Sequence record: PZ809289.1
Direction: 5' to 3' (one strand)
Length of the DNA stretch: 64,000 nt
Source: a phage
Below the pieces are notes generated by a model, which saw nothing but the letters and a program-made list of their open reading frames with translations, was not told the DNA's origin and did no database searches. The first letter of the stretch is position 1. Every line of letters begins with the position of its first letter. Made by a program: the position numbers and the translations under genes. Below, piece by piece: positions 1,912 to 61,843 of the stretch.

Positions 1912-2577
1912 ATGTTCCATTACACTTATAAAATAACAAACAAAATTAATAATAAAATCTATATAGGTGTCCATTCAACCGAAAATTTGAATGATGCATA
2001 TTTTGGTTCCGGTAAACTCTTGAAAAGGGCCCAGGCCAAATACGGTATAGAAAATTTCTCTAAAGAAATATTAGAGTTCTTTGACGATAAAATCTCTATG
2101 TTTGAGTCAGAAAAGAATATTGTGACTGAAGAGTTTTTAAAGCGCCCCGATGTTTATAATTTGAAATTAGGCGGTGAAGGTGGTTGGGACCATTTAAACA
2201 CCGAAGAATATTTAGATAAAAAGAAAGAAGCTTCCTTAAAAGGAGTTGCTGCTTTTAAAACCAGATTTGAGAACGACCCAGACCTTAAAGAAAAATATCG
2301 TAAAATGGGTTCAGAAAGGTTTAAACAACTTTGGGATAATCCTAAGTATAGAGAGAAATTTTCAAATACTAAATCTTTCTTGGGTAAGACCCATTCAGAT
2401 GAAACCAAAAATAAAATTAAAGAATCTCACGCCAGAAATAAACACCAACAAGGTGAAAATAATTCCGGATATGGAAAAATGTGGATTCATTCTTTAGAAG
2501 AAAAAGTTTCTAAACGTATTAACAAAACGGATATTATTCCTGAAGGTTGGAATAAAGGCCGTAAAATAAAATTTTGA
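1912..2577 (+). CDS. segB: GIY-YIG family homing endonuclease (segB-like, within tRNA cluster)
   Basis: N-terminal YTYKITNKINNKIYIGVHST (GIY..YIG), basic C-terminal DNA-binding repeats; sits between two tRNA genes as T4 segB does; SD AGGAG. Confidence 0.75.
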   Translation: MFHYTYKITNKINNKIYIGVHSTENLNDAYFGSGKLLKRAQAKYGIENFSKEILEFFDDKISMFESEKNIVTEEFLKRPDVYNLKLGGEGGWDHLNTEEYLDKKKEASLKGVAAFKTRFENDPDLKEKYRKMGSERFKQLWDNPKYREKFSNTKSFLGKTHSDETKNKIKESHARNKHQQGENNSGYGKMWIHSLEEKVSKRINKTDIIPEGWNKGRKIKF

Positions 2578-2582
2578 ATTAC

Positions 2583-2657
2583 GTCCCGCTGGTGTAATGG
2601 ATAGCATACGATCCTTCTAAGTTTGCGGTCCTGGTTCGATCCCAGGGCGGGATACCA
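2583..2657 (+). tRNA. tRNA-Arg (anticodon TCT)
   Basis: Acceptor GTCCCGC/GCGGGAT with encoded CCA, anticodon loop CTTCTAA, T-arm CCTGG-TTCGATC-CCAGG. Confidence 0.8.
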
Positions 2658-2659
2658 AA

Positions 2660-3036
2660 TGAAGACTATTATATAGTCAAGCCGTCGTATGAAGACTGAT
2701 TACCAGCATTCACCGGCGCAACAAACAAGAAACCGGGTCGCTACCGGTAAGTCGTCGGACTGATGTTCCCTGAGTAAGGACTGGCATTAACAAATCTTTA
2801 CGATCTGTTAACGTCCCCTTACATCACAGCAGAAACGGCGCACCGAATTATCGATTCGAGGAAATATCTTTGCCGTAAGCCGAGTAGCGTTTTTGACGGA
2901 ACGTTCGGATATGGTCGAGATATGGCCTTTTAAAAATATTGAGTGGCGTCAACTACTTAATAACCGGGTTCGAATCCCGGCGTTTCGTACAAACACTTGC
3001 CTAGCAGGTGGAACCCCGACAAGGTTACCCTAGGTT
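2660..3036 (+). ncRNA. ORF-free structured region downstream of tRNA-Arg; candidate stable small RNAs (T4 species 1/2 RNA position)
   Basis: About 380 nt with no ORF in any frame, GC-rich paired segments, a T-arm-like CCGGG-TTCGAAT-CCCGG element, ends at a terminator. Confidence 0.3.
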
Positions 3037-3038
3037 AA

Positions 3039-3068
3039 AGGCCCTTCCGAAAGGTTGGGCCTTTTTTG
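3039..3068 (+). terminator. intrinsic terminator (hairpin plus T-run)
   Basis: GGCCCTTCC-GAAA-GGTTGGGCC followed by TTTTTT. Confidence 0.6.
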
Positions 3069-3076
3069 TATAAATA
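3069..3076 (+). promoter_or_regulatory. T4-type late promoter TATAAATA
   Basis: Exact TATAAATA about 28 nt upstream of ATG 3104. Confidence 0.45.
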
Positions 3077-3103
3077 TGTAGTTAAACTAACCTAGGAAAT
3101 AAT

Positions 3104-3658
3104 ATGAAACTTTTAAAATATTTGAGTTGGGTACTGTTGGTTCCTCTAGATTTTATCTCTATGGTTCTGGCTGTTATCCTTGCACCATTTGTGGTTCCTT
3201 TCCACAATAAAAAGACCGGTAAATTGCCTTATGGCTTTGATTGGATGATGACATACGATAATCCAATTGACGGTGACAAAGGTCATATTAAACGTTGGGC
3301 TAAAATCAGGAAAATGCCAGGTGGTGTTTATCTCCAGAGAGTAGCCTGGTTATGGCGAAATAAAGCTTATAACTTTGCTTATCATAAACTTGGACGCGAT
3401 TGTAGTTCGGAATTCCATTATCGTGGTAATCCTGACGTAGAATCAGGTTCTCCTGATAAAGCTCATCATGGGTGGCTATGGATGTGGAATGACGACGCCT
3501 GGGGTGTATTTGCTTCAGTTCCTTATCTTAAGGTTGGTGGAATCACATTTTACCTTCGAGTGTACTGTGGCTGGAAGCTTAAAAGTCTTTTGTCTCGTAA
3601 AATCCCTAAGGCTATGTTAGCCTTCCACATAAACCCATTCCGGTTCTACAAGAACTGA
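3104..3658 (+). CDS. membrane protein, unknown function
   Basis: SD AGGAAA; N-terminal hydrophobic segment; flanked on both sides by the same terminator sequence. Confidence 0.6.
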   Translation: MKLLKYLSWVLLVPLDFISMVLAVILAPFVVPFHNKKTGKLPYGFDWMMTYDNPIDGDKGHIKRWAKIRKMPGGVYLQRVAWLWRNKAYNFAYHKLGRDCSSEFHYRGNPDVESGSPDKAHHGWLWMWNDDAWGVFASVPYLKVGGITFYLRVYCGWKLKSLLSRKIPKAMLAFHINPFRFYKN

Positions 3659-3663
3659 TTCTA

Positions 3664-3693
3664 GGCCCTTCCGAAAGGTTGGGCCTTTTTTTG
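3664..3693 (+). terminator. intrinsic terminator (repeat of the 3039 terminator)
   Basis: Same GGCCCTTCCGAAAGGTTGGGCC hairpin followed by T7. Confidence 0.6.
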
Positions 3694-3716
3694 TTTCTAA
3701 AAGGTTTAAAAAAGAT

Positions 3717-3745
3717 GTTTACTCTTTCGTAGAACATGATACTAT
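3717..3745 (+). promoter_or_regulatory. early promoter cassette (GTTTAC-N17-TACTAT)
   Basis: GTTTAC 3717-3722, TACTAT 3740-3745, conserved AGACCTATCAA downstream. Confidence 0.6.
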
Positions 3746-3780
3746 AGACCTATCAAAACAACAGAGTGAAGGAGAGTAAA

Positions 3781-4044
3781 ATGGATAATTATGGTGAAGT
3801 GTTTAATTTCTTTATGAAATGCGTTCCTGAAGAATTTGGTGCTACTGTTAACGATATTAAAGTTATCGGCCCTGAACACCCGGTGTATGAAACCTATGCA
3901 GTAATGGGTAATGAAGATGGACAGTGGTATACAATTAAAGTTGTGATTAATATGTTCTCAGCTGAAGGTTACGCCAAATCGTCTACCAAAGTTTACCATG
4001 GTAATGATTTTGATGCAGAAAATTATTTCAATAATATGAAATAA
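3781..4044 (+). CDS. hypothetical protein
   Basis: ATG 3781 after GGAGAG; track start 3766 is GTG. Confidence 0.5.
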   Translation: MDNYGEVFNFFMKCVPEEFGATVNDIKVIGPEHPVYETYAVMGNEDGQWYTIKVVINMFSAEGYAKSSTKVYHGNDFDAENYFNNMK

Positions 4045-4047
4045 AAC

Positions 4048-4077
4048 GTTTACATGGGCTCATGATTAAGATATTAT
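4048..4077 (+). promoter_or_regulatory. early promoter with inverted repeat flanking -10
   Basis: GTTTAC 4048-4053, TATTAT 4072-4077, palindrome ATGGGCTCAT...ATGAGCCCAT. Confidence 0.5.
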
Positions 4078-4102
4078 GAGCCCATAATTTGAGGAGAACA
4101 TA

Positions 4103-4501
4103 ATGAATATCGAAGATAAAGAAATGCAAGAGTTGTATAATTCATTAACACCTGAACAACAAAAATATGCCAAAGAACTAGAGAAAGCTCTTACTTTCAA
4201 CTTGGCAAAAACTGATTGGGCCGCTATGTATGAAGAAAAAACTAGATTAGAACTTGAAGCCGTCGAAAGAAATGAATGGATTGTCGAAACCAAGATTTCT
4301 GATGGTGGTTGCTCTGTTGAGGTGTCAGCTGTAGTTAAAGGTACTCATGGTGAAAAATCATGGGGCTGGCATAATGAAGCAAACAAACATATTGTTCTCT
4401 CAACGTCAAAAACTTATGGCCAAAGGGCTCCTGTATCCAAAGCTATTATTAAGCAAGCTCAATGGGAAGCCAATGAAATTTGCCTCGCAAAAATGAAATA
4501 A
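4103..4501 (+). CDS. hypothetical protein
   Basis: SD GAGGAG 7 nt upstream; 132 aa. Confidence 0.55.
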   Translation: MNIEDKEMQELYNSLTPEQQKYAKELEKALTFNLAKTDWAAMYEEKTRLELEAVERNEWIVETKISDGGCSVEVSAVVKGTHGEKSWGWHNEANKHIVLSTSKTYGQRAPVSKAIIKQAQWEANEICLAKMK

Positions 4502-8981: not shown

Positions 8982-8993
8982 TTGCACAAAACA

Positions 8994-9022
8994 GTGTACA
9001 AGGTCTATAGGTGTGATACTAT
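8994..9022 (+). promoter_or_regulatory. early promoter cassette (near-identical copy of the 400-428 cassette)
   Basis: GTGTAC 8994-8999, TACTAT 9017-9022, palindrome AGGTCTATAG/CTATAGACCT. Confidence 0.55.
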
Positions 9023-9059
9023 AGACCTATCAAAACAACAGAGTGAAATGGAGAATAAA

Positions 9060-11271: not shown

Positions 11272-11766
11272 ATGGATATTTTTGATATGTTACGCCTTGA
11301 TGAAGGCTGTAAATTAGACTTATATAAGGATACTGAGGGATACTATACTATTGGTATTGGCCAATTGATTACTAAGAATCCTTCTAAAGATGTTGCTCGG
11401 GCTGAACTTGATAAGCTTATGGGCCGGGTTTGTAACGGACGTATTACTATGGCTGAAGCCGAACAACTTTTTAACAGGTCGGTTGAAAATGCTCGTAGAG
11501 CTATTCTGCGTAATCCTAAATTGAAACCTGTTTATGATGTACTGGACGAAGTTCGTCGTTGTGCTTTAATTAACATGGTATTCCAAATGGGTGAAGCAGG
11601 TGTAGCTGGGTTCACTAACTCTTTACGTATGCTCCAACAGAAACGTTGGAATGATGCGGCAGTTAACCTGGCTCAATCCCGTTGGTATAAACAAACCCCT
11701 AATCGTGCTAAGCGCGTGATTTCTACATTTAAAACAGGTACTTGGAAAGCATATGAAAACTTATAA
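11272..11766 (+). CDS. e: T4-type lysozyme (endolysin) e
   Basis: 164 aa, near-colinear with T4 lysozyme ([22 protein letters not shown]..., catalytic E11/D20/T26 region conserved). Confidence 0.95.
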
Positions 11767-12151
11767 TGAATTTATCGCAGAGAATGTAATTCCTGCATCT
11801 AAAGAACTTTTGGCAATGTTCGAATCTGAAGAGTTCACTGAAGAACTGAATGAGAATCTGACCCAGGCCACTCCTCAGGTTATTCGCGTTCGTAATGCCC
11901 TTCAGACAGGCATGCAGGCTCGCGTCTCTAAGACTATGAAGCTGGCCTTCACCACTTCTAAAAATGAAGACTACGGTGATGGTATTGCAATGAACACTGG
12001 ACAGTATTATGTTGAGTGGAATGGCGAAACCGGTACTGCTAAGATTCGCCAAACCAGAGCAGCGGGTGGTAAAATGTTGGACATTAAACTGAACGTTAAA
12101 GAGAAAGACGTCGCGGCTTTGTTCAAGAATTGGATGAAGACCTATAAATAA
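11753..12151 (+). CDS. internal-protein-like protein with capsid targeting sequence
   Basis: Starts [11 protein letters not shown]; position of T4 ipIII; start overlaps stop of e. Confidence 0.7.
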
Positions 12152-12180: not shown

Positions 12181-12233
12181 ATCTACAGTTACTTGAACAG
12201 ACCAATTAAAATATTTTCCTTTAAGGAACCCGT

Positions 12234-12830
12234 ATGAAAACGTATAAAGAATTTATCGCCGAAGCTTCTGTAGGAAAGGTCCAAGGCATTAATAAAGATG
12301 AGTGGACTTACAAAGGAAACGGCGTTGACAACCCAGGAAACGGTTTTGACGCTAAAACAGCTCCTATTGAACGGTACTTGGCTACAAAAGCTTCCGACTT
12401 TAAAGCTTTCGCCTGGGAAGGACTTCGCTGGCGTAACGACCTAAATATTGAAGCTGATGGACTTAAATTTGCCCATATCCAAGATGTTGTTGCTAGTAAC
12501 TTGGACGCAGCTTTTGTTAAAGCTGACGGTGACCTTCGTCGCTGGAATTTAAAACTGTTCTCTAAACAGAAAGGTCCTGTATTTGTACCTAAAGCAGGTA
12601 AATGGACTATTGATAATAAATTGGCTAAAGCAGTTAACTTCGCTGGTCTTGAATTTGCCAAGCATAAATCCGCATGGAAAGGTCTTGATGCAATGACTTT
12701 CCGTAAAGAATTTGCCGATGTTATGGCTAAAGGCGGCTTTAAGGCAGAAATAGATACCTCTAAAGGTACGTTTAAAGACGCTAATATTCAGTACGCTTAC
12801 GCCGTTGCTAATGCAGCCCGTGGTAATTAA
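12234..12830 (+). CDS. internal-protein-like protein with capsid targeting sequence
   Basis: Starts MKTYKEFIAEAS; 198 aa, Lys/Ala-rich; between e and denV like T4 ipII/ipIII. Confidence 0.7.
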   Translation: MKTYKEFIAEASVGKVQGINKDEWTYKGNGVDNPGNGFDAKTAPIERYLATKASDFKAFAWEGLRWRNDLNIEADGLKFAHIQDVVASNLDAAFVKADGDLRRWNLKLFSKQKGPVFVPKAGKWTIDNKLAKAVNFAGLEFAKHKSAWKGLDAMTFRKEFADVMAKGGFKAEIDTSKGTFKDANIQYAYAVANAARGN

Positions 12831-12854
12831 TAAAGCCGATACTTGATAAAAGTT

Positions 12855-12883
12855 GTTTACATCTCCTGTAGTCATGATACTAT
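12855..12883 (+). promoter_or_regulatory. early promoter cassette with flanking inverted repeat
   Basis: GTTTAC 12855-12860, TACTAT 12878-12883; ATCTCCTGTAG 12861-12871 pairs with CTACAGGAGAT 12895-12905 (contains SD). Confidence 0.6.
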
Positions 12884-12910
12884 AGACCTATCAACTACAG
12901 GAGATTAAAA

Positions 12911-13318
12911 ATGACTCGTATCAACCTTACCTTAGTATCTGAATTGGCTGACCAACACTTAATGGCTGAATATCGTGAATTACCACGTGTTTTCGGTGCA
13001 GTTCGTGAACGTATTGCCAAAGGGCAAGGCTTCTCTGATATCCCTAAAGACTTCCGCCTTGGTTCAGGGCACGTCAAGTTCTTTTATGACAAAATTGGTT
13101 TTTTGTTCTTGCGACAAAATGCAATAATTGAGGAACTTCTGAAGCGTGGTTACCAGATTCAAAATACCCATGTAGACGTAGCGGATATTCCATTACGGCT
13201 TATGAACGATTTCACTCCAACCGAAGCTGATATAGCTTTAAGCCAAGCTCGTCTGGATGAAAAAATTGCACAGCGTCCTACCTGGTACAAACATTATGGC
13301 AAGGCTATTTACGCTTAA
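12911..13318 (+). CDS. denV: endonuclease V (pyrimidine dimer DNA glycosylase) DenV
   Basis: Starts [32 protein letters not shown], essentially the T4 DenV N-terminus; C-terminal [15 protein letters not shown]. Confidence 0.95.
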
Positions 13319-13361
13319 TTAAATCCGTGATAGAATACTTCTATCAACTTAAGGAATAACA

Positions 13362-13661
13362 ATGAAAACTTATCAAGAATTTATCACAGAAGCCAAAGCT
13401 CCTAAAGCATTTCAAATTGGAGTTCAAGGCAATTTAGACCAAGAATATGTTGATGCTATTGTAGCAAGCCTCGGTAAACAGGGCGTACAAGTCGATTTTG
13501 TTGATTTTACCAAAGGTAATACTTTTAATATTGTTACATCTAAAGGTTCTTTAGCTAAAGTTAAAAAGGCCTTTGGCGTAGCACAAGCATATGAAATCGA
13601 CCACTCCGAATTAGAAAATAAAGGTCGCCAGAACACAATTAGAGGTTCTGGTTCTTTCTAA
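13362..13661 (+). CDS. internal-protein-like protein with capsid targeting sequence
   Basis: Starts MKTYQEFITEA; 99 aa. Confidence 0.65.
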   Translation: MKTYQEFITEAKAPKAFQIGVQGNLDQEYVDAIVASLGKQGVQVDFVDFTKGNTFNIVTSKGSLAKVKKAFGVAQAYEIDHSELENKGRQNTIRGSGSF

Positions 13662-13765
13662 TAAAGGCAAGCCGGCCCTCTCCTCATGAACGTCTAGTCC
13701 TCTGGGTGATGAACCCAAGGATGAATTATGTGCCAAGGATTAGTCCATAACTTAAAGAGTCAAAA

Positions 13766-14125
13766 ATGAAAACATATCAGCAATTTATTACTGAATCTAC
13801 CCAACGTATTAACGAAGCTATGTCGCCTGAACAGTTGGCTAAAGCTAAAGAAGGCCTGAACCCATCTGAAGTTTTTAAAGTTACAGGTAAAGACTTTGCT
13901 TCTATGGCCACTAACCAAAGCCTGGCTAAAGAACTTAAATCTAAATCTAACTTCATTCATGCTACATGGAATGGTGATTCTCTTACTTCAATAAGTGTGT
14001 ACAATAAAAAAGGTCTCCTTAAGAGTTCTTATGGCGCGGATGCCATCCGTGTTTCTAAATCAGATTGGCATAAAAACACTACTAAAGCAGAAAAACCTCA
14101 TAACCCGGCACTAGACCATCTTTAA
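13766..14125 (+). CDS. internal-protein-like protein with capsid targeting sequence
   Basis: Starts MKTYQQFITEST; 119 aa. Confidence 0.65.
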   Translation: MKTYQQFITESTQRINEAMSPEQLAKAKEGLNPSEVFKVTGKDFASMATNQSLAKELKSKSNFIHATWNGDSLTSISVYNKKGLLKSSYGADAIRVSKSDWHKNTTKAEKPHNPALDHL

Positions 14126-14133
14126 GGCTTAAT

Positions 14134-14391
14134 ATGAAAACTTACCAAGAATTTATTACAGAATCCACTTTAGTTTCTAAACGTTGGAATATGATTGTAA
14201 ACGTTAAACCTTCCGGCACTGAAGTTTCTATGGCCGACCCTAATGATGACGAACTTGAGCACGCTTTTAGCTCTAAAGAAACTGACGAGAAAGTGGTTAA
14301 GCAACTGGTTGCTGATGCAGATCAACTTCGTAAAGTAGCAGATGTTGTTAAGCTGTTTACTAAGAAAGGTTTTAAACACGAAGAACGTTAA
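14134..14391 (+). CDS. internal-protein-like protein with capsid targeting sequence
   Basis: Starts MKTYQEFITEST; 85 aa. Confidence 0.65.
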   Translation: MKTYQEFITESTLVSKRWNMIVNVKPSGTEVSMADPNDDELEHAFSSKETDEKVVKQLVADADQLRKVADVVKLFTKKGFKHEER

Positions 14392-15572: not shown

Positions 15573-15847
15573 TTGAAGATATCAAGGGTTATAAACCGCA
15601 TACCGACGATAAAATCGGTAAAGTGAATGCTATCAAAGATGCTGAAGTTCGTCTTGGGTTAATGTTTAAAGCTCTAGAAGAAGAACATGTTACCTATTAT
15701 ATGAACTTAGATACCGAAGAGGTTTCTGAACAAGAACTAGACCAGGCTCATGAACGCATTACCCAGATTCGTAATGCAATTGACCGTCTTAAAGAAGCTA
15801 GTATGTGGGCTTGTCGCTCTGTGTTCCAACCAGAAGAAAAGTACTAA
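15569..15847 (+). CDS. small acidic protein
   Basis: ATGA overlap; 92 aa. Confidence 0.45.
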   Translation: MIEDIKGYKPHTDDKIGKVNAIKDAEVRLGLMFKALEEEHVTYYMNLDTEEVSEQELDQAHERITQIRNAIDRLKEASMWACRSVFQPEEKY

Positions 15848-15851
15848 AGCA

Positions 15852-15880
15852 GTTTACATCTCCTGTAGGTATGATACTAT
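15852..15880 (+). promoter_or_regulatory. early promoter cassette with flanking inverted repeat
   Basis: GTTTAC 15852-15857, TACTAT 15875-15880, arms ATCTCCTGTAG / CTACAGGAGAT. Confidence 0.6.
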
Positions 15881-15908
15881 AAACCTATCAACTACAGGAG
15901 ATTACAAA

Positions 15909-20487: not shown

Positions 20488-20495
20488 GTTTAGGT

Positions 20496-20524
20496 GTTTA
20501 CATCCTCTAGGAACATGATACTAT
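20496..20524 (+). promoter_or_regulatory. early promoter cassette
   Basis: GTTTAC 20496-20501, TACTAT 20519-20524, AGACCTATCAA. Confidence 0.6.
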
Positions 20525-20552
20525 AGACCTATCAACTAATGAGGAGAACAGT

Positions 20553-23343: not shown

Positions 23344-23532
23344 ATGAAGGTCTTTTTATCATATGGAAGACCCCATAAAACCCGACGTTGGTATCTTGAA
23401 GCTGTCTGTAAAGAAACCGGACGTCGAGTCAATATCAAGTACGTGTGCAAACCTACGCCTAAACAGACAAGACAATTTGTTAACTGGGCTATAAATGATA
23501 TACGCTTCCATAATTTTTGGAGCGCAATTTAG
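23344..23532 (+). CDS. small basic protein
   Basis: ATG 23344 after GAAGAAATG; 62 aa; followed by terminator. Confidence 0.4.
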   Translation: MKVFLSYGRPHKTRRWYLEAVCKETGRRVNIKYVCKPTPKQTRQFVNWAINDIRFHNFWSAI

Positions 23533-23554
23533 GAACCTTCGGGTTCCTTTTTTG
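23531..23554 (+). terminator. intrinsic terminator
   Basis: AGGAACC-TTCG-GGTTCCT followed by T-run; identical hairpin recurs at 58538. Confidence 0.65.
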
Positions 23555-24629: not shown

Positions 24630-24971
24630 ATGTTTGAACAATTTAGTTATGACCTTATAAAAGCAGAGTTGAAGTACTCTAATGCCGTGAAACAGTCCGT
24701 CGAGGACTATGATAAAGAACTTATCGATGGATATACTAATAGAGTTTATAAAACTGATTGTGAAGAAGGAGACTACAAGAGACTGCTCTTGGCCGCGAAG
24801 ACCCAGGCCTTAATAAATCTAGACCGCAAGCAGGTAAAGTTGGCAGGCGACTTCCGAGATGAACTCTGCGCCATCAGGAATGAATATCGCATTCGTATTG
24901 AACACCAACGGAAAGAGAACACCCAATCCGCCTGGTTTAGTGGTCAAGCCGGTGAAAAAAGTTTCTATTAG
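24630..24971 (+). CDS. hypothetical protein
   Basis: SD AAGGGTGA; 113 aa. Confidence 0.5.
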   Translation: MFEQFSYDLIKAELKYSNAVKQSVEDYDKELIDGYTNRVYKTDCEEGDYKRLLLAAKTQALINLDRKQVKLAGDFRDELCAIRNEYRIRIEHQRKENTQSAWFSGQAGEKSFY

Positions 24972-24973
24972 TT

Positions 24974-25002
24974 GTTTACATCTCCAGTAGAAATGATACT
25001 AT
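24974..25002 (+). promoter_or_regulatory. early promoter cassette with flanking inverted repeat
   Basis: GTTTAC 24974-24979, TACTAT 24997-25002, arms ATCTCCAGTAG / CTACTGGAGG. Confidence 0.6.
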
Positions 25003-25028
25003 AGACCTATCAACTACTGGAGGTTAAC

Positions 25029-25553
25029 ATGAACGCTAAAGATATTTTTTCACTCATCAATTATAACAATGGTAATTTCAAATCCGAAAAACAAAGCAAG
25101 TTCTTTAACGACGTTGCTTGTGGTAATGAGATTACTGTATCTGGAGGAGAGATTTACAAAAGCCGTTGGAACTGGATTGTTGTCATCGATTCAGTTGGTA
25201 TTGTAGAGCTCTATAAAAACACTAACAAAAAACGTACTCTTCACTGGAGTCGTGAAACCAATCAAGCTTATCAAGCTGAACGTAACAAACGTTTAATGCC
25301 TACCGAATCTGACCTGGCAAACGTTAAATCTGATATCGCTTATTTCGATAATCTGATTGCTGAACAACAAGCAGTTATTGATAAGTTTGACGAAATCAAA
25401 GCTTGTAAAGAGATTCCTGAATTTATGCGGGAATCAGTAAACGAACAGTACGCCCTCACTTCAGGTCGTATCGAGCAGTACAAATCACAACGAGCTGAAC
25501 GCCAAGCTCTGCTTCATAAATTTGAAGAGCGTTTAAAGACGGTTCTCGCATAA
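25029..25553 (+). CDS. hypothetical protein with C-terminal coiled coil
   Basis: 174 aa ORF; SD GGAGG. Confidence 0.5.
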   Translation: MNAKDIFSLINYNNGNFKSEKQSKFFNDVACGNEITVSGGEIYKSRWNWIVVIDSVGIVELYKNTNKKRTLHWSRETNQAYQAERNKRLMPTESDLANVKSDIAYFDNLIAEQQAVIDKFDEIKACKEIPEFMRESVNEQYALTSGRIEQYKSQRAERQALLHKFEERLKTVLA

Positions 25554-35223: not shown

Positions 35224-35397
35224 ATGACGAATTCGATGGATTTTGATAAGATTAAATCTGACAAAAATGAGATGATACTTCAATTTGAAGCCGCTCGTAT
35301 TAAAGCAGAAAATGAAGGTACTATTACCTATAAGCCTATCAAGTTCAGGTCTAATCACGAACCTCTGTACGGTGTATTAGTTGGTAAAGGAGCTTAG
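35224..35397 (+). CDS. small protein (57 aa)
   Basis: Not in track; SD AAGAGG 8 nt upstream; ends in terminator stem. Confidence 0.3.
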   Translation: MTNSMDFDKIKSDKNEMILQFEAARIKAENEGTITYKPIKFRSNHEPLYGVLVGKGA

Positions 35398-35409
35398 GCT
35401 CCTTTTTTG
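35388..35409 (+). terminator. intrinsic terminator
   Basis: AAGGAGC-TTA-GGCTCCTT followed by TTTTTT. Confidence 0.6.
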
Positions 35410-54225: not shown

Positions 54226-54247
54226 GGAGCTTCGGCTCCTTTTTTGT
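54225..54247 (+). terminator. intrinsic terminator
   Basis: AGGAGC-TTCG-GCTCCT followed by TTTTTT. Confidence 0.65.
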
Positions 54248-54255
54248 TTTTAAGG

Positions 54256-54284
54256 GTTTACATCTCCTGTAGGTGTGATACTAT
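54256..54284 (+). promoter_or_regulatory. early promoter cassette
   Basis: GTTTAC 54256-54261, TACTAT 54279-54284, AGACCTATCAA. Confidence 0.6.
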
Positions 54285-54308
54285 AGACCTATCAACTTGG
54301 AGAACAAA

Positions 54309-54626
54309 ATGAAAACCATCGACTGTAAAGCAGAATATAAAGTGTATTATCACGGAAGTTGTAGTGTTGCTAATATCGGTAATATGCTTTGTCCTCCTGA
54401 GGAGACAGGAGTTCTGTCTGAAACTGGTCGTAAGAAAAACCTAAATCGTGTGTTCTTTACTGAAGATATTGGTTTGGCTAAGATTTATGCTGGACGTGCA
54501 GCTCGTTCAGTGGGAGGAGAACCCCGTCTTTATCGTGTAATTGCTCCGGTAGATGTGGTTTGTTTAAATGATACTAAAGGCGCTACGGTTTATCATGCTG
54601 AATGGGCCTTCTGTGAGGAAATCTAA
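54309..54626 (+). CDS. hypothetical protein
   Basis: ATG 54309 after GGAGAACAAA; 105 aa. Confidence 0.5.
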   Translation: MKTIDCKAEYKVYYHGSCSVANIGNMLCPPEETGVLSETGRKKNLNRVFFTEDIGLAKIYAGRAARSVGGEPRLYRVIAPVDVVCLNDTKGATVYHAEWAFCEEI

Positions 54627-56204: not shown

Positions 56205-56217
56205 AGGCCAGGAGCCT

Positions 56218-56382
56218 ATGAAATCTTTTAAAGAAGTTATGAACGAAGATATGGTCGCAGGCGATGCAGGTGGAAACCCATCTAATATTGCCTCCGGAAC
56301 TACCTCAGGCGCAGTCGTCAACAAAGGGCCTGAACAAATCCCATCTAAAAAGCGTAAAGAAAAATCCGAAAACGAATGATAT
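56218..56382 (+). CDS. small late protein (54 aa), Gly/Ser-rich
   Basis: Not in track; late promoter plus SD GGAGCC; MKSFKEVMNEDMVAGDAGGNP... Confidence 0.4.
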
Positions 56383-58537: not shown

Positions 58538-58561
58538 GGAACCTTCGGGTTCCTTTTTTGG
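58538..58561 (+). terminator. intrinsic terminator (same hairpin as 23531)
   Basis: AGGAACC-TTCG-GGTTCCT followed by TTTTTT. Confidence 0.65.
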
Positions 58562-61706: not shown

Positions 61707-61774
61707 ACCACCCGGTTTAATTGAAAGGCAAAGTCCTTGATTCATTATACCGTCGAAAATTTAAAGCAAAAAGT

Positions 61775-61803
61775 GTTTACTTTACCGAGCAACATGATAC
61801 TAT
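61775..61803 (+). promoter_or_regulatory. early promoter cassette
   Basis: GTTTAC 61775-61780, TACTAT 61798-61803, AGACCTATCAG. Confidence 0.6.
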
Positions 61804-61843
61804 AGACCTATCAGCTAATCGTCCGTAAGATGAGAAAAATATT

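Follow-up and report, generated by a model that had tools for sequence, protein, structure and literature searches.

A DUF7338 gene cassette of a Dhakavirus phage is probably gained, lost and relocated by recombination within a dispersed transcription terminator

In the 64-kb stretch of phage DNA analysed here (hereafter the window), a single gene of the DUF7338 family lies between two copies of the same transcription terminator, and the presence/absence boundaries of the gene among related phages fall exactly on this repeat. This supports the suggestion of the first-pass annotation that the repeats mark a module that was inserted, or can be lost, by recombination between them. The exact repeat, alleles that differ by precisely one unit, a second locus in Mosigvirus, a parallel case in Tequatrovirus and the mosaic pattern of phage LF82-2 all count for this reading, and we consider it probable that the cassette is gained, lost and relocated by short-homology recombination within a dispersed terminator and that it represents a self-contained, insulated late unit. 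The direction of the individual events, the recombination chemistry (strand exchange or slippage) and any circular intermediate are what we infer from the sequences.

The phage of the window is a T4-like, JS98-like coliphage of the genus Dhakavirus, and the nearest records identified by BLAST were LHE83, LQ5 and PSD9 at about 97% identity. The stretch from 2400 to 4400 was read closely and its open reading frames were listed; all features of the cassette region are located on the plus strand. Upstream of the cassette by some 500 bp, a gene for a SegB-like GIY-YIG/NUMOD3 homing endonuclease (1912-2577, plus strand; domain and phrog profile matches) is placed between tRNA-Met and tRNA-Arg as in T4, and JS98, JS10 and IME08 possess a tRNA-Asn at this tRNA site instead of the SegB-like gene. 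The tRNA-Arg(tct) (2583-2657, ARAGORN and Rfam) is the last of the phage tRNA cluster and is followed by homologues of the T4 small stable RNAs, an rnaD-like segment (about 2728-2850) and rnaC (2851-2989), which were assigned by T4 alignment and the annotations of BLAST hits. The window rnaC reached an alignment score of 135/139 against annotated T4 rnaC. At gathering thresholds, Rfam returned only two tRNAs and no family for rnaC, rnaD or the terminator hairpin. The transcription unit formed by the tRNAs, rnaD and rnaC ends at the first terminator copy. On the other side, the cassette is followed by a T4-early-type promoter (GTTTAC-17 nt-TACTAT, 3717-3745; consensus from PMC4122927) belonging to a repeat family, D1, with 11 copies in the window, and by the homologue of e.8 as the first downstream gene (3781-4047; phrog_2678; annotated as e.8 in JS98, T4 and QL01).

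The small-RNA segment is, by sequence comparison, itself mosaic among Dhakaviruses. A T4-like rnaD/rnaC segment (94% identical to T4) is present in the window, QL01 and ABTNLS3; rnaC is wholly missing in JS98, JS10 and IME08 (loci L001-L003, about 1500-1670), in which the rnaD-like segment has diverged. In addition, a segment of about 66 nt that is absent from T4 occurs between tRNA-Arg and the rnaD-like RNA (2658-2727) and contains a 9-nt direct repeat, ATGAAGACT, at 2659-2667 and 2689-2697.

The terminator repeat consists of an exact 28-nt direct repeat, GGCCCTTCCGAAAGGTTGGGCCTTTTTT, at 3040-3067 and 3664-3691, with a start-to-start distance of 624 bp. These two were the only matches in the 64 kb even when three mismatches were allowed, and the sequence did not occur in any of 100 dinucleotide-preserving shuffles. 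The same terminator thus stands at both cassette ends, as had been claimed, except for the quoted AAAGG start: AAA precedes the first copy only, and the bases before the second are tcta. Copy 1 (3040-3067) reads GGCCCTTCC-GAAA-GGTTGGGCC plus six T residues, and in copy 2 (3664-3692) the run comprises seven. Both fold into a hairpin capped by a GAAA tetraloop, below which lie a CC/GG step, a tandem U.U internal loop and a 6-bp G+C stem; U6-7 comes next, and the free energies are -16 to -18 kcal/mol (-17.9 kcal/mol for copy 1, -16 kcal/mol for copy 2; z about -3). The predicted structure, a G+C-rich hairpin directly before a U-run, is that of an intrinsic (Rho-independent) terminator; homologous sites have been labelled as terminators by other depositors, including several Tequatrovirus records after rnaC, and the outer stem covaries in unrelated contigs bearing an identical hairpin tip. 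A simple terminator/promoter scan identified neither terminator copy nor the e.8 early promoter, and the two terminators were missed because of the internal loop in the hairpin. Terminators and early promoter were identified by folding, repeat families and orthology instead.

Copy 1 is the resident one and orthologous to the rnaC terminator of T4, which possesses its counterpart, GCCCCGACCGAAAGGTTGGGGCTTTTTG, at the same site after rnaC and behind the same conserved upstream spacer. The two are alike in position, upstream flank, 3' arm and loop but differ in two bases of the 5' arm (GA in T4, TT in copy 1), which creates the tandem U.U loop. As copy 1 occupies the position of the T4 rnaC terminator, copy 2 is the additional one. 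In T4 a single terminator copy and no cassette is found, with about 150 nt of other sequence ahead of the e.8 promoter.

Directly behind copy 1, the T4 late-promoter consensus TATAAATA occurs at 3069-3076 (plus strand), 27 nt upstream of the start codon. The motif reported in the first-pass annotation is thus present, and its designation as a late promoter draws on the motif and its conservation: it is kept in the Dhakavirus, Mosigvirus and Tequatrovirus cassettes. Within the window the motif was found six times compared to 7.2 expected, which is not above chance, and all six are on the plus strand. We infer late timing of cassette expression from this motif. A Shine-Dalgarno-like AGGAA is located at 3094-3098 (plus strand), 6 nt before the ATG.

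The cargo gene (3104-3658, plus strand) is an intact open reading frame for a 184-aa protein of DUF7338 (PF24027, phrog_2143). The Pfam match is full-length (E = 3.8e-63, 212.9 bits at a cutoff of 27, residues 1-183 of 184), and the match to phrog_2143 has an E value of 1.2e-79. A strongly hydrophobic N-terminal helix (residues ~2-33) is predicted to be transmembrane, so that the earlier description as a single membrane-protein gene was confirmed with respect to the gene and is a reasonable prediction with respect to the location. No match to the predicted fold was found among solved structures. Homologues of the protein form 39 clusters, mainly from virulent enterobacterial phages and metagenomes, and their invariant motifs include T.DNP.DGD, WLWRN.AYNF and R.Y.GWK.K. 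The DUF7338 gene is the sole open reading frame of the unit and has no nuclease domain, which sets the unit apart from a free-standing homing-endonuclease cassette. As a working guess, the product may be a late-made, membrane-anchored accessory protein, and it would be dispensable in the laboratory, as natural deletions exist.

DUF7338 genes were repeatedly observed inside or adjoining tRNA clusters of unrelated lineages, namely in Felix O1-like, rV5-like, Karamvirus, Gelderlandvirus, Dhakavirus and jumbo phages. In a scan of 44 IMG/VR loci, tRNA genes were present at no more than 2.5 kb from the DUF7338 gene in 24, the neighbour often being tRNA-Arg(tct). Such loci include L008 (Felix O1), L009 (PG7), L007/L062 (Gelderlandvirus), L027-L029, L038, L039, L042, L059, L085, L092, L097 and L098. 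In Felix O1, an HNH endonuclease is located near the DUF7338 gene. We could not tell whether a functional link lies behind the proximity to tRNA genes or whether the genes simply share a plastic region.

Among Dhakaviruses, six arrangements were found between the rnaC terminator and the e.8 early promoter. In the following, T denotes the terminator after rnaC, Pe the e.8 early promoter, Pl the late-type promoter TATAAATA, and T' and T'' unrelated terminators. The empty site, T-Pe, occurs in vB_SalD_ABTNLS3 and vB_EcoM_FB. The arrangement of the window, T-Pl-DUF7338-T-Pe, is shared with JS10, LQ5, PSD9 and LHE83. IME08, dhaeg, dhabil, CLB_P2, SHP1 and C6 carry a gene for a 206-aa protein in this position, T-Pl-orf129-T'-Pe, and a tandem arrangement, T-Pl-DUF7338-T-Pl-orf135-T'-Pe, was identified in JS98, KIT01, NC-G, AnYang, IME281, UP19 and others. 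In QL01, WG01 and 04086 the order is T-Pl-154-aa ORF-T''-DUF7338-T-Pe; a different terminator stands ahead of the DUF7338 gene, which has no TATAAATA of its own. The sixth arrangement, that of PSD2002, corresponds to the QL01 type, but an internal deletion has left only a remnant of the DUF7338 gene. An absence of variation among relatives, the outcome that was to speak against a mobile module, is not what was observed: the relatives vary, by empty, replacement and tandem alleles at the rnaC site as well as by filled and empty alleles at the Mosigvirus rI locus described below.

At the empty junction of ABTNLS3 and FB, a single terminator joins the left flank of copy 1 to the right flank of copy 2, behind which the early promoter and e.8 follow. 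On the sequence level, this allele is the exact product predicted for recombination between the two copies of the window. Compared with the window, ABTNLS3 is 100% identical in the rnaC segment and 97% identical downstream, and given this near-identity of the flanks the empty allele is most simply explained as a recent deletion. In the JS98-type alleles the repeat extends to about 37 nt and takes in TATAAATA, and JS98-type and IME08-type alleles differ by 622-623 bp. Within Dhakavirus, identity is 90-94% for the cassette and 91-97% for the flanks. The similar divergence of cassette and flanks indicates a mostly vertical history in this genus, for which few independent events are needed.

PSD2002 lost the DUF7338 gene by an internal deletion that did not involve the repeats. 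Its remnant (L019, about 1335-1400) consists of the first 17 nt of the gene joined to the last ~60 nt at a short TAAAAT-like microhomology, indicating that loss of the gene also proceeds independently of the terminator repeats. In 04086 (L014, 760-1000), a stretch of NNN is accompanied by a 209-bp local duplication including the terminator and the start of the next open reading frame, which is probably an assembly problem rather than biology. Assembly artefact or duplication as a general explanation was rejected, as the arrangement recurs in many independent genomes and 04086 was the only suspicious one. A further observation concerns a family of small open reading frames with a conserved 5' end, ATGAAAACTTATAATGAATTTAT (protein MK(T/S)Y.EF...), which occurs in the window at 123-153, 11751-11781, 12232-12262, 13360-13390, 13764-13794, 14132-14162 and 56216-56246. 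The alternative cassette genes at the rnaC site (orf129/135/137 and the 154-aa ORF) start in the same manner, and such conserved gene starts could provide further recombination substrates.

A tblastn search with the cargo protein identified homologues in Mosigvirus phages such as LF82-2, PTK, PHB12 and PTE-Eco05. Here, the gene directly follows the lysis-inhibition gene rI, a locus unrelated to the rnaC site. The cassettes of Mosigvirus and the window are 72.5% identical in nucleotides and about 75% identical in amino acids, homology can also be recognised in the TATAAATA leader, and the Mosigvirus cassette is bracketed by two copies of the genus's own terminator variant, GCCCCTTCCGAAAGGTTGGGGC / GCCCCTTCCGAAAGGTTGGGGCTTTTT. 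A search with the rI locus identified about 23 Mosigvirus records with the cassette and roughly 130 without, the latter being 623 bp shorter. The empty site, as in JK36 and SA79RD, contains exactly one terminator copy followed by the same early promoter, and the terminator at the empty SA79RD site was annotated independently by its depositors. The flanks of LF82-2 (filled) are 98.9% and 96.5% identical to those of the empty JK36, and 96.4% and 95.5% identical to those of the filled PTK, and the cassettes of LF82-2 and PTK are 98.4% identical. Such mosaicism agrees with an exchange of the cassette as such.

Across 863 phage records, the terminator proved to be a dispersed repeat with one to four sites in each genome. 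Between uvsY.-2 and uvsW, Dhakavirus relatives carry an exact third copy of the Dhakavirus version, and at the Mosigvirus tRNA locus the same terminator as at rI follows rnaC, succeeded by a late-type promoter, a 154-aa ORF and a loop-variant terminator. Ectopic targets thus exist. A search of viral contigs with the T4 form of the hairpin tip revealed a parallel arrangement with different cargo: in ZN18-like Tequatrovirus contigs, TATAAATA and a 154-aa ORF beginning MKSY..F come after the rnaC terminator GCCCCGACCGAAAGGTTGGGGC, and an identical second terminator lies 557-559 bp downstream of the first, both being of the T4 variant. Hence, the flanking terminator copies match within each genus but differ between the three genera, as would result from integration at, or conversion against, a resident terminator.

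We propose the following mechanism. The 624-bp unit would act as an insulated late transcription unit that comprises TATAAATA, the ribosome-binding site, the DUF7338 gene and a terminator and is set exactly between the terminator of the tRNA/rnaD/rnaC unit and the e.8 early promoter. Exchange would take place within the roughly 28-37 bp of terminator sequence that is a dispersed repeat in these genomes. Crossover or template switching between direct copies would delete the unit and leave one terminator. An excised or donor unit would carry one terminator copy, and its recombination with any resident copy of the same terminator would yield a terminator-cassette-terminator arrangement. As the junctions lie inside the terminator and upstream of the next promoter, neighbouring expression would remain undisturbed. 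Presumably, the general machinery of the phage performs the recombination. Against the mechanism it has to be considered that transfer between co-infecting relatives by a double crossover in the flanks needs no terminator repeat. The mainly vertical history in Dhakavirus, the QL01-type arrangement, the repeat-independent deletion in PSD2002 and the finding that the gene has no long flanking direct repeats outside Dhakavirus and Mosigvirus also count against it.

Several other readings of the locus were weighed against recombination within the terminator. The two terminators might be independent look-alikes of a favoured hairpin design around an ordinary, vertically inherited accessory gene, the repeat having no part in gain or loss. 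The same hairpin tip indeed occurs in many unrelated viral contigs, sometimes several times per genome, other identical pairs are located far apart in the window, and the divergence of the cassette in Dhakavirus resembles that of its flanks; with identical terminators elsewhere and a common hairpin design, the identity of the two terminators proves little alone. We nevertheless regard this reading as unlikely, as the difference between the alleles of relatives amounts to exactly one repeat unit and the junction retains a single intact terminator, at two unrelated loci, and as convergence predicts neither the match of the copies within a genome nor their difference between genera. Equally unlikely appears a reading in which the cassette is mainly a passenger of gene conversion driven by the SegB-like endonuclease, with the repeat being incidental: a cut in the tRNA region of a co-infecting phage would be repaired by copying flanking DNA including the cassette. 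The SegB-like gene just upstream fits this reading, SegB reportedly promotes preferential inheritance of the T4 tRNA region (Brok-Volchanskaya 2008, cited in PMC4122927), and several lineages have their DUF7338 genes within or next to tRNA clusters, with the HNH endonuclease nearby in Felix O1. SegB-driven conversion may contribute locally. However, it leaves indel boundaries exactly on the terminator unexplained, no endonuclease gene adjoins the cassette at the Mosigvirus rI locus, and many cassette-bearing Dhakaviruses, such as JS98 and JS10, have no segB at the site.

Direct repeats that flank or contain hairpins are classic substrates for replication slippage (compare Albertini 1982, cited in PMC4122927). 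Loss could accordingly occur by slippage (copy-choice) between the hairpin repeats rather than by strand exchange, and gain only by homologous exchange at the same locus with a donor already filled there, without any free cassette or ectopic integration. The deletion alleles are fully compatible with this reading, but the second-locus cassette of Mosigvirus is not readily accommodated: both of its junctions lie inside the resident terminator, so that at least one ectopic terminator event is needed. We therefore judge an exclusive role of slippage to be quite unlikely. A universal element with fixed ends was rejected as well, as no long direct repeat flanking the DUF7338 gene was found outside Dhakavirus and Mosigvirus. 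Very unlikely, finally, is the more far-reaching reading that the hairpin with its conserved tandem T.T/U.U mismatch and GAAA loop is an active structure-specific recombination site beyond passive homology, where the folded single-strand hairpin would stimulate template switching or serve as the recognition target of a phage factor. It was counted for an active site that viral contigs contain the mismatched tip CCCTTCCGAAAGGTTGGG several times more often than perfectly paired variants. If an active site were true, terminator cassettes would be the phage counterpart of integron attC cassettes and could move between any loci or genera having the shared terminator.

Recombination within the terminator, the reading we favour, has a close precedent. 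PeSLs (promoter-early stem-loops) are composite stem-loop/early-promoter motifs that flank open reading frames in hyperplastic regions of T4-type phages, and in RB49/phi1 inverse PCR revealed mini-circles excised between flanking regulatory repeats (Arbiol et al., 2010; PMC2839356). Subsequent work applied the concept to the pairs T4/PST and KVP40/nt-1 and added a middle-promoter version, PmSL (Comeau et al., 2014; PMC4122927). PeSLs and the cassette are alike in that short terminator/promoter motifs flank small accessory open reading frames and mark indel or replacement boundaries, and the mechanism proposed for PeSLs, excision and integration by recombination between motifs, is also the one proposed here. 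As in PeSLs, the motif is repeated in the genome (two exact copies in the window, a third in Dhakavirus relatives), and indel or replacement boundaries coincide with it at the rnaC and Mosigvirus rI loci. Copy 2 together with the e.8 early promoter (3664-3745) fits the PeSL definition, the stem-loop being followed by GTTTAC-17-TACTAT and then e.8, but copy 1 does not, as it is followed by the late-type TATAAATA and not by an early promoter. Furthermore, homology is confined here to the 28 nt of the terminator hairpin, and the cargo is a predicted late unit, whereas the published variants are of the early (PeSL) and middle (PmSL) type. In the published work the crossover was suggested to occur in the AT-rich promoter region, whereas the junctions observed here are in the terminator, and unlike published PeSLs the terminator family of the window is common to three genera, each with its own variant. 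Mini-circles have been shown for PeSLs in RB49/phi1, whereas the window cassette is known here from sequence comparison. Thus, PeSL-type modular shuffling is already known, and the new aspect is the late-promoter, terminator-centred variant, of which the locus is an unusually complete example. In this context, the early-promoter repeat of the window, GTTTAC..17..GATACTATAGACCTATCAA, occurs in eleven copies (394-456, 3711-3773, 8988-9050, 12849-12911, 15846-15908, 20490-20552, 24968-25030, 54250-54312, 61769-61831 and others), is conserved well past the -35/-10 hexamers and probably represents the phage's own family of PeSL-type promoters.

The cassette also resembles phage morons, which have their own promoter and terminator, lie between conserved genes and are present or absent among relatives. 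Morons have been described in temperate phages, where they are typically expressed from the prophage. The unit of the window differs from these in that it occurs in a virulent phage, has a late lytic promoter motif and involves a resident terminator at the point of insertion or duplication. A likeness to integron attC cassettes lies in single promoterless or simple open reading frames between imperfect hairpin repeats and in varied cassette arrays at one site; the rnaC-site cassettes of Dhakavirus encode proteins of 184, 154 and 206 aa. However, integron cassettes depend on an integrase, and the repeats here are transcription terminators; no integrase was annotated near the homologous locus in the relatives examined.

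As a natural record, the locus shows with unusual clarity how accessory genes are added, dropped and relocated in virulent T4-type phages with the neighbours undisturbed, since filled, empty, tandem and replaced alleles all occur at one locus and the same cassette occurs at a second locus in another genus. It would broaden the PeSL idea to units with a late promoter and, as a second extension, to exchange at the terminator hairpin. For phage engineering, it offers ready-made neutral insertion sites together with a removable cassette. In addition, DUF7338 is flagged as a widespread, dispensable, putative late membrane protein and a candidate for a role in host interaction or exclusion.

Further terminator pairs were observed tens of kb apart in the window, GGAACCTTCGGGTTCCTTTTTT at 23532-23553 and 58538-58559 and the near-identical pair GGAGCTT(A/C)GGCTCCTTTTTT at 35389-35408 and 54226-54245, both with no evident cassette role. 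More generally, unrelated phages commonly have a terminator built as the CCC..CCGAAAGG..GGG hairpin. Its U.U-mismatched tip CCCTTCCGAAAGGTTGGG was found in 63 viral-contig stretches from many unrelated lineages (IMG/VR loci L100-L191), with covarying outer stems and usually a T-run next, compared with 10 and 6 stretches for the perfectly paired forms and 15 for the GA form of T4. One 251-kb contig (L164/L184) contained seven such U.U-tip terminators within about 17 kb.
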